Source: Escherichia coli (GTDB lineage Bacteria > Pseudomonadota > Gammaproteobacteria > Enterobacterales > Enterobacteriaceae). From it: 64,000 nucleotides of DNA. Below are positions 19,747-20,413 of the stretch, in pieces. Numbering within the stretch: position 1 is the stretch's first letter; each line of letters opens with the position of its first letter. A program made the translations under genes and the position numbers. The notes under the pieces are model-generated. The model did not search any database, had not been told where the DNA came from, and saw only the letters and a program-made list of their open reading frames with translations. Where the stretch lies: the NCBI RefSeq assembly GCF_003018115.1, contig NZ_CP027457.1, one strand, 5' to 3'.

Positions 19747-20070
19747 TTACAGCAGCACATCCAGCCCGTGTTTTTGCACAATGCTGAGCAGTTTTAATGA
19801 AATGCCATTGGGGCGTTTAGCGCCACTTTCCCATTTTTGTACAGTTGAAACGCTGGTATTGAGATAGTGAGCGAAGACGGGCTGACTCACTTTTAATTTT
19901 TCCCGCAGTGCTTTTATCTCAACAGGTTGTAAGTCTTGCACGCTGGTCAGGCAGGCTTTGTCAAAAGTACGCATTGTTTCGGCAGAAATAGCATCGACGC
20001 TGGACAATCCAGCCGCTGCGCTGTGAATAGCCTCAAATGCAGGACTTTTAAATTTAGTTTTTGCAGTCAT
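19747..20070 (-). CDS. HigA-2-like antitoxin (XRE-type helix-turn-helix protein, 107 aa)
   Basis: Small HTH protein immediately downstream of, and overlapping by 17 nt, a RelE/ParE-fold toxin gene. Confidence 0.7.
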   Translation of the reverse strand: MTAKTKFKSPAFEAIHSAAAGLSSVDAISAETMRTFDKACLTSVQDLQPVEIKALREKLKVSQPVFAHYLNTSVSTVQKWESGAKRPNGISLKLLSIVQKHGLDVLL

Positions 20071-20413
20071 AGCAGATCTCTGTCAGTTCTTTAGTGTTAA
20101 TCATTGCTGTTAGCTGGGCTTTCGTCAGGAAGGCATAATGCTTTGCAAGTTCACGAAACCCAGCCAGTTCCTGACTATTGATGTTCGACATATCCTGTTT
20201 TGCATATAAAAACGTGTAAAACCAATTGCTTCCCCCTTTTGCCAGAATAATTGCACGCTCACGATTTTGGTGAAGGCGCTTTTTAAAAACGCCACCACCA
20301 AGTGCATCAGCTTTACCTTGCTCCGTTTCTAAAATGGCCCGGCACAACTCTTCATCTGTTATTGCATGAGACCTGGCTTCCCTTGCAAACCATTTGGTTT
20401 TAAACACGCGCAT
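20054..20413 (-). CDS. HigB-2-like toxin (RelE/ParE superfamily, 119 aa)
   Basis: Resembles Vibrio HigB-2 as I recall it (GGGVFKKRL...RAIILAKGGSNWFYTFLYAKQDMSNINSQE vs GGLRKIRV...SRIIYYFLDEKRRFYLLTIYGKNEMSDLN); toxin-first operon order. Confidence 0.7.
   Translation of the reverse strand: MRVFKTKWFAREARSHAITDEELCRAILETEQGKADALGGGVFKKRLHQNRERAIILAKGGSNWFYTFLYAKQDMSNINSQELAGFRELAKHYAFLTKAQLTAMINTKELTEICYDCKN

Follow-up and report, generated by a model that had tools for sequence, protein, structure and literature searches.

The window analysed here is a 64,000-nucleotide (nt) stretch of Escherichia coli DNA (contig NZ_CP027457.1 of assembly GCF_003018115.1), and its subject is a pair of small overlapping genes between yicN and nepI that resembles the HigB-2/HigA-2 toxin-antitoxin system of Vibrio cholerae. 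An earlier inspection of the letters alone (the sequence-only reading) had described open reading frames (ORFs) of 119 and 107 amino acids (aa) in toxin-first order with a 17-nt overlap, and the ORF listing gives exactly this arrangement; it adds that both genes lie on the minus strand, a detail absent from that reading, with the toxin ORF upstream of the antitoxin ORF. The placement between yicN and nepI was confirmed as well. The upstream flank encodes, on the plus strand, a DUF1198 protein with 100% identity to YicN of K-12, and the downstream flank encodes NepI, which matches the equivalog NF007578 at 851.8 bits and has its annotated start at 20641. The genes and their overlap are as follows.

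20054..20413, minus strand: toxin gene, 119 aa, an ORF matching PF06296; predicted HigB-2-type RelE-fold mRNA interferase with predicted catalytic residues R46, R53, Y70 and K72.
19747..20070, minus strand: antitoxin gene, 107 aa, an ORF with a conserved N-terminal part (residues ~5-45), presumed to bind the toxin, and a C-terminal XRE-type helix-turn-helix (HTH; residues ~46-102).
20054..20070, minus strand: 17-nt overlap of the toxin 3′ end and the antitoxin 5′ end, from the ORF coordinates.

In RefSeq the two products are labelled 'RelE/ParE family toxin' and 'helix-turn-helix domain-containing protein'. To place them in context, we used 80 related loci fetched from one-genome-per-species contigs of Enterobacterales, Alpha- and Betaproteobacteria, Gemmatimonadota and Acidobacteriota, and in all 80 the toxin gene is directly followed by the antitoxin gene. 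The geometry of the overlap, in which the antitoxin begins 17 nt short of the toxin ORF end (stop codon counted), recurs in most of the enterobacterial loci, and translation of the two genes may be coupled through it.

The toxin matched the full profile of PF06296 (E = 8.8e-42, 142.6 bits against a cut-off of 27), residues 1-113 aligning with profile positions 1-120, and this was the only Pfam family matched at E <= 0.01. All 120 toxin homologues listed carry PF06296, and a representative-protein library contains 850 clusters (50% identity) at E <= 0.001, which indicates that the family is large. PF06296 is named 'RelE' in Pfam but is the family of V. cholerae HigB-2 and not that of K-12 RelE, which belongs to PF05016 (PMC11980606). 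V. cholerae HigB-2 itself, represented by a sequence verified to be identical to chain C of PDB 5JA9, scored 34.5 bits on the profile and covered positions 8-96 of 120. In the same Pfam scan the toxin matched neither PF05015 (HigB of Rts1) nor PF09907 (K-12 HigB), and it gave no match to MqsR (PF15723).

The predicted fold points to the same family. When the AlphaFold model of the toxin (pLDDT 87.5, built from 31 homologues) was compared with the PDB by Foldseek, the nine best matches were all V. cholerae HigB2 chains (probability 0.94-1.00, TM 0.44-0.61), at modest E-values of about 4e-3 to 3e-2, and RelE structures ranked well below them. An hhalign alignment of HigB2 with a broader profile of the toxin family pairs HigB2 R51, R64, Y82 and K84 with toxin R46, R53, Y70 and K72; it replaced a first run with a narrow profile, whose register was structurally implausible. 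A BLASTP alignment with ToxP of Coxiella burnetii agrees with this register and places ToxP K79 opposite toxin K72. Alanine substitutions at the four HigB2 positions cut the activity 170- to 3000-fold (PMC5416850). In the family alignments R46, R53 and K72 of the toxin are conserved at 90% or more, and position 70 is Y or F. The AlphaFold model also has a C-terminal helix (residues 98-106) and strand (residues 110-115), and E112 within this extension is invariant in every alignment made. Together with its surrounding E-I-C-(H/Y)-D tail, the extension could be a catalytic or regulatory element.

The antitoxin matched HTH_3 at 32.9 bits (cut-off 23), and its residues 46-102 matched HigA-2 of PDB 5JAA at E = 9e-10. 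With the PF06296 toxin, this match bears out the proposal of a HigB-2/HigA-2-like, toxin-first pair with an XRE-type HTH antitoxin, which the sequence-only reading had made. The N-terminal half is strongly conserved in the family alignment (FKSxAFEAIHSAA...TMRxFD), and a fused toxin-linker-antitoxin model places antitoxin helices at residues 10-24 and 30-40 with pLDDT above 85. By analogy with HigA-2, the N-terminal segment would be the neutralising part. An identity as MqsR/MqsA was considered and rejected: the antitoxin scored 26.2 bits for MqsA_antitoxin (cut-off 30) and 41 for TIGR03830 (cut-off 61.8), in both cases over the HTH part alone, its N-terminal half contains no CxxC motif, and the toxin, as described above, lacks an MqsR match.

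Among experimentally tested systems, the closest relative found is ToxP/AntitoxP (CBUA0028/CBUA0027) of the Coxiella burnetii plasmid QpH1, whose genes are likewise toxin-first and overlapping. Full-length identity to ToxP is 31% for the toxin; the antitoxin has 55% identity to AntitoxP across 104 residues, the N-terminal part included. ToxP is toxic and blocks translation, AntitoxP rescues the cells, binds ToxP and binds the promoter, and a spontaneous non-toxic ToxP mutant carries K79E (PMC10098735). This position maps to toxin K72. The two systems differ in their setting, since ToxP/AntitoxP is plasmid-borne and needed for plasmid maintenance whereas the E. coli copy is chromosomal.

V. cholerae HigB-2/HigA-2 (VCA0468/0469; PDB 5JAA, 5JA9 and 8A0X), also of PF06296, provides the nearest solved fold. 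It shares with the E. coli pair the R, R, Y, K active-site residues, the toxin-first order and a C-terminal XRE-type HTH in the antitoxin. HigA-2 also has an N-terminal neutralising part and a single inverted-repeat operator over the -10, to which the presumed toxin-binding segment and the candidate operator of the E. coli pair would correspond. The toxins are nevertheless only about 20% identical, HigB2 ending on the profile before the C-terminal helix and strand, and the beta2-beta3 loop is longer in HigB2 and shorter in the E. coli toxin. The N-terminus of HigA2 is disordered and folds to a helix and a strand on binding, whereas two helices are predicted for the E. coli antitoxin.

K-12 RelE/RelB was compared as well. 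The toxins have the RelE/BECR fold class in common, the predicted ribosome-dependent mRNA cleavage would likewise go through Arg/Lys/Tyr and not a His-Glu pair, and HigB2 was reported to be most like RelE (PMC5416850); relBE, however, is antitoxin-first, and RelB is a ribbon-helix-helix and not an HTH protein. K-12 HigBA (YgjN/YgjM), Salmonella SehAB and Rts1 HigBA are toxin-first with an HTH antitoxin, as here, but their toxins belong to PF09907 and PF05015 (PMC11980606). Two Salmonella candidates were rejected as homologues. SehAB (STM4031/STM4030.S) belongs to a different family, SehB having 142 aa and 46% identity to K-12 HigA and hence no relation to the 107-aa antitoxin, and the 'higB-2' of a Salmonella SOS-regulon paper appears from its locus-tag order to be SehA. 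The true Salmonella homologue (P0037) adjoins nepI.

The region upstream of the toxin contains three elements, all read on the minus strand or as an inverted repeat.

20424..20427, minus strand: Shine-Dalgarno AGGA, 10 nt upstream of the toxin ATG, from reading of the sequence; the spacing is conserved in the enterobacterial loci.
20433..20461, no strand: candidate operator, the imperfect palindrome TAAAGTATTGCAC-TTG-GTGATATACTTTA in minus-strand reading (inverted repeat I3).
20436..20444, minus strand: putative extended -10, TGATATACT, in the right half of the operator, from reading of the sequence; nearly all loci have an equivalent TGnTA(T/C)A(G/C)T after the palindrome.

The PGAP annotation starts the toxin at a GTG two codons downstream, giving 117 aa. 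We consider the ATG at 20413 the likelier start, because the homologues of other genera all begin MR(V/I)FKT at an ATG 10 nt after AGGA. The copy of the O157:H7 strain 17B6-2 (L084), the one O157:H7 genome that was read, has ATA instead of ATG at the window-equivalent 20411-20413, and its sole remaining start is the GTG two codons on, 16 nt from the Shine-Dalgarno sequence. This change may attenuate toxin translation in the O157:H7 lineage.

The candidate operator is 29 bp long, has 13-nt arms that are 85% complementary, and precedes the toxin start by 20-48 nt. When the 100-nt stretches preceding the toxin gene were aligned for all fetched loci, a consensus for the whole family emerged, the inverted repeat TAGCAC-N3-GTGCTA with TA(T/C)A(G/C)T immediately after it; the candidate operator is the Escherichia variant of this repeat. 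With at most two mismatches to this consensus, the palindrome was found in all 79 loci with enough upstream sequence, its median distance to the start codon being 27 nt. In 63 of the 79 the exact core GCAC-N3-GTGC stands upstream of the toxin, and it occurs 90 times in total in the 598 kb of locus DNA. The outer arms are longer in the Escherichia copies than in the family consensus. The promoter element of pQpH1, CAC-TTA-GTGATATAGT, is very like CAC-TTG-GTGATATACT of E. coli. The Coxiella promoter consists of a TTGACA -35, 17 nt containing CAC-TTA-GTGA, and then TATAGT, whereas a good -35 is missing in the E. coli copy. A generic promoter and terminator scan of 19600-20700, in which the promoter scanner requires a good -35, found nothing, and no LexA box of the form CTG-N10-CAG is present in 20414-20640.

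Several observations weigh against a close equivalence with HigB-2/HigA-2. Searching the PDB by sequence, with the toxin alone and with two family profiles, recovered neither HigB2 nor any other entry, and the hhalign match of HigB2 with the broader profile was weak (E = 0.002, probability 14%), so that the link between the toxin and HigB2 depends on the Pfam match, the fold search and this one weak alignment. The C-terminal helix and strand with the invariant E112 are absent from HigB2. V. cholerae HigA2 binds a single inverted repeat over the -10, TGTACGC-N5-GCGTACA, with base contacts from R68, E71, N72 and R77 (PMC11006873), and the corresponding residues of the antitoxin are S75, Q78, K79 and A84; the DNA recognition of HigA2 is therefore not directly transferable. 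Because both the operator sequence (TAGCAC-N3-GTGCTA in the relatives of the E. coli toxin) and the base-contacting residues differ, HigA2 and the predicted E. coli site appear to have the operator architecture in common but not the recognition code. Even relative to its own family the Escherichia operator departs from the consensus in each of the two core half-sites (T(T/C)GCAC...GTGATA vs TAGCAC...GTGCTA). Finally, no experiment or paper on the E. coli pair or its locus was found in the searchable literature.

Nevertheless, the PF06296 and HTH_3 matches, the pairing in 80 of 80 loci and the substitution pattern establish that the ORFs are real genes and not chance ORFs. In within-Escherichia comparisons at dS 0.13-0.30, dN/dS was 0.07-0.17 for both toxin and antitoxin, and thus both genes are under purifying selection. 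These values also bear on the idea that the pair is a decaying, non-functional remnant kept by chance. Truncated variants do occur in the protein collection, as clusters of 95-112 aa, and the O157:H7 copy examined has lost its ATG start; against this, both ORFs are intact in the window and in all annotated genome rows examined, the Pfam match is full-length, and dN/dS is about 0.1. Decay, which the selection data already largely refute, is thus extremely improbable. The pair is an ordinary member of a known toxin-antitoxin family that is already generically annotated in RefSeq.

From the behaviour of its tested relatives, a mechanism can be proposed. RNase activity, ribosome dependence, neutralisation, operator binding and lability of the antitoxin would all be expected by analogy. 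By homology, the toxin would enter the ribosomal A site and cleave translating mRNA using R46, R53, Y70 and K72. The antitoxin would neutralise it through the conserved N-terminal segment, and an antitoxin dimer would bind, by its C-terminal HTH, the single inverted repeat over the extended -10 of the operon and so repress its own transcription. If the labile antitoxin were depleted, the toxin would be freed and translation would stall.

The same mechanism is compatible with a role mainly in abortive infection, in which shut-off of transcription by a phage depletes the antitoxin and releases the mRNase. RelE/ParE-superfamily toxins have been discussed as defence toxins (PMC11980606). The cassette that holds the pair is present in some strains and absent from others, and relatives below 60% identity are found on 183 plasmids, mostly rhizobial and Coxiella. 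However, the toxin had no match in PADLOC-DB 2.0, where the antitoxin gave weak generic HTH matches alone (RmrA at 23.5 bits, HTH_VI), and the sole match in the phage collection was a 515-kb Salmonella contig, which is not a phage. No adjacent defence genes were seen, and the long syntenic residence beside nepI described below is unlike that of a defence-island gene. We regard a primarily anti-phage role as unlikely.

Compared with enterobacterial homologues, the antitoxin is more conserved (77-86% identity) than the toxin (65-74%), which is unusual for toxin-antitoxin pairs. This would suit a partial domestication in which the main task of the antitoxin is transcriptional regulation, for instance at the promoter of the divergent nepI gene, alongside a toxin that is attenuated or no longer needed; the location of the candidate operator in the 227-nt region shared with nepI, and the ATG to ATA change of the O157:H7 copy examined, would fit as well. 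Yet purifying selection on the toxin is as strong as on the antitoxin, and the catalytic residues are retained. In addition, nepI functions without the cassette in 68% of strains, and the palindrome lies 180 nt from the nepI start, outside the nepI-proximal block that is conserved across genera. Domestication of this kind is accordingly highly improbable.

That block, at 20560-20600, has the form GCAAC...AAAACGTTAAAT.C.TCACA...AATGTTAC and is conserved in Escherichia, Salmonella, Citrobacter and Klebsiella, as seen in the alignment of loci L085, L013, L010, L016, L046 and L037. It is palindromic in character (I4), lies outside the cassette, and is probably a nepI regulatory site.

The extent of the cassette was defined by comparison of the yicN-nepI region with that of K-12.

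19705..20546 (left edge 19705/19707), no strand: cassette segment of about 840 bp; K-12 and other cassette-less strains have a 43-nt filler, TAATCTTTGCCCTGTTCCGTTTCGATCTTAACTCCAGCTCAAG, in its place.

The sequence-only reading had taken the pair to be missing from K-12 at this position, and the 43-nt filler shows this to be correct. It had further regarded the pair as a small accessory insertion. The accessory part stands: the cassette is present in 1716 of 5426 complete E. coli genomes, always on the chromosome and always at this locus, its carriers including O157:H7 and O25b:H4-ST131 strains, while the cassette-less genomes (~68%) include K-12, a BL21 derivative, O104:H4, O111:H8 and an O25:H1 strain. 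The insertion part is not supported, as the same pair adjoins nepI in the same orientation in several genera. This is the case, with nepI divergent, in Klebsiella pneumoniae, K. oxytoca, K. michiganensis, K. grimontii and K. indica, and likewise in Citrobacter amalonaticus, one further enterobacterial gut genome, Escherichia sp. E1V33 and E. coli E69 (a separate species-level representative). In these loci yicN is on the other side of the pair where the sequence allows this to be seen; in Salmonella the pair adjoins nepI in the same orientation and the far-side genes differ. Between these genera and the window the identity is 65-73% for the toxin and 77-90% for NepI. The toxin-antitoxin proteins are therefore at least as diverged as NepI, and no recent exchange between these genera has taken place. 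In comparisons of the window with the other two Escherichia lineages, dS reaches 0.16-0.26 in the pair and 0.30-0.50 in the flanking genes.

These data suggest that the pair has probably long resided upstream of nepI in Enterobacteriaceae, and that it was probably lost repeatedly, rather than gained, in the ~68% of E. coli genomes without it, K-12 included; loss in K-12 is the likelier event because the same pair, in the same orientation, adjoins nepI in Salmonella, Citrobacter, Klebsiella and other Escherichia. The 43-nt filler is identical in K-12 and in the O25:H1 strain CU39ES-1, whose nepI region is ~93% identical to that of the window.

Four results speak against long residence, and repeated capture at a hotspot is also conceivable. 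The GC content of the cassette is 43.3%, compared with 52-53% in the flanking genes. The K-12 filler holds no significant trace of the cassette (alignment score 13 vs shuffles, p about 0.06), and homology of the right junction to Salmonella, Citrobacter and Klebsiella scores 6-14, where the maximum of the non-syntenic background is 12. In a neighbour-joining tree of the concatenated pair the nepI-linked copies are not monophyletic, though this tree is too rough to separate vertical descent from repeated capture. The junctions alone do not prove the direction of the change. Two apparent signals were rejected in the course of this comparison. By eye, 16 of 19 bases of the filler match toxin codons at 20311-20329, as a deletion scar would, but with the p-value given above and with no signal against nine other syntenic cassettes; and the distal upstream region of the cassette, which looked suggestive of right-junction homology in the alignment, was not above background on scoring.

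Considering gene structure, family, predicted fold, active-site conservation, strict pairing, the operator-like palindrome, purifying selection and distribution, we judge it likely that the window holds an intact chromosomal type II toxin-antitoxin operon of the HigBA-2/PF06296 type that is probably an old resident near nepI and was lost in K-12. It is, by comparison, quite unlikely that all parts of a more far-reaching proposal hold jointly, namely vertical inheritance, rather than mobility, of the nepI-linked copy since before the Escherichia-Salmonella-Klebsiella split, a slower-changing antitoxin, a role of the E112 extension, and a host role at the nepI promoter.

The tree also shows that copies without a nepI link, from Pectobacterium, Erwinia, Serratia, Edwardsiella, Tatumella and others (L006-L035), form a tight cluster with short branches, and that the nepI-linked copies (L010-L046) are on long branches. 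This difference suggests a horizontal spread of one sub-lineage of the family within Enterobacterales. Two contigs of ~1 kb (L004 and L047), binned in a metagenome-assembled genome of Collinsella sp. (Actinomycetota), carry cassettes together with yicN or nepI fragments, one with a toxin 97% identical to that of E. coli and the other about 65% (like the K. pneumoniae copy). These are almost certainly binning contaminants from Enterobacteriaceae.

On the other side of nepI, an island of ~19 kb lies between nepI and nlpA (22027-40866). At 22027-34599 it encodes an inverse autotransporter adhesin of 4190 aa, for which matching genomes give the annotation IatC or EaeX/Air; beyond this come a HilA/EilA-family regulator at 34649-36346 (953.8 bits) and SipD- and SipB-like proteins (type III secretion needle-tip/translocator) at 36549-40866. 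The adhesin contains many near-identical repeats of about 100 aa, and the GC content of the island is 56% in the adhesin gene but drops to 38% in the part with the regulator and the translocator proteins.

The sequence-only reading had suggested that the pair possibly stabilises this island. In its full form, the suggestion is that a recent small cassette stabilises the iatC/air-eilA-eip adhesin/type III secretion-related island by killing cells that lose it. The low GC content of the cassette (43%), its absence from 68% of E. coli genomes and its distribution relative to the island would be consistent with this: the nepI-proximal end of the island is present in 750 of 5426 complete E. coli genomes, and 746 of the 750 also have the cassette. 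This nesting is, however, equally explained by physical linkage over 1.4 kb and shared ancestry, and does not speak for stabilisation. Between the cassette and the island lies the core gene nepI, and about 970 E. coli genomes have the cassette without the island; in an O157:H7 example yicS comes immediately after nepI, which is also the K-12 arrangement. The pair adjoins nepI in Salmonella, Citrobacter, Klebsiella and other Escherichia as well, and the ~2.6 kb fetched past nepI in the loci of other genera showed no iatC. A deletion of the island alone leaves the cassette in place, and post-segregational killing could therefore not act against that loss. Nor is the cassette recent, because its within-Escherichia dS reaches 0.16-0.26. 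The suggestion is thus not supported, and island stabilisation is very unlikely.

Between the window and the O157:H7 copy L084, dS is 0.26 for nepI, 0.04-0.07 for the cassette and 0.05 for yicN. This difference suggests that a recombination boundary separates the cassette from nepI, with a distinct nepI allele travelling with the island.

A further element lies at the left end of the cassette, where a pair of REP-like elements follows yicN at 19640-19740, the second of them forming a hairpin.

19675..19740, no strand: REP-like hairpin between the convergent yicN and antitoxin genes (inverted repeat I1, 18-nt arms 89% complementary).

This hairpin is a candidate bidirectional terminator. In the Rfam scan, which gave two matches in all, both sub-threshold, it matched naRNA4 (REP-derived nucleoid-associated RNA) at 32.2 bits vs a threshold of 59.5. 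K-12 has the left arm of the hairpin alone and the right arm belongs to the cassette, and hence the left junction of the cassette lies inside the REP element. A short perfect hairpin, TTCGAG-CAGC-CTCGAA, occurs at 20523-20538, within the cassette close to its right end and between nepI and the toxin promoter. The Salmonella and Klebsiella loci have GC-rich inverted repeats at the matching place, whose similarity to this hairpin is not above background.

The practical value of the finding is modest, and consists in a precise HigBA-2/PF06296 identity for a pair that is generically labelled in RefSeq and present in a third of E. coli genomes, together with toxin residues that can be tested (R46, R53, Y70, K72 and E112). 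For the family, the operator consensus TAGCAC-N3-GTGCTA over an extended -10 holds across several bacterial phyla, and if the C-terminal extension is functional, core PF06296 toxins would have a mode of action somewhat unlike that of the single member with a solved structure. For E. coli, the probable long residence of the pair at one site in several genera, with repeated loss, would be a counter-example to the view that a strain-variable toxin-antitoxin pair is a recent insertion.

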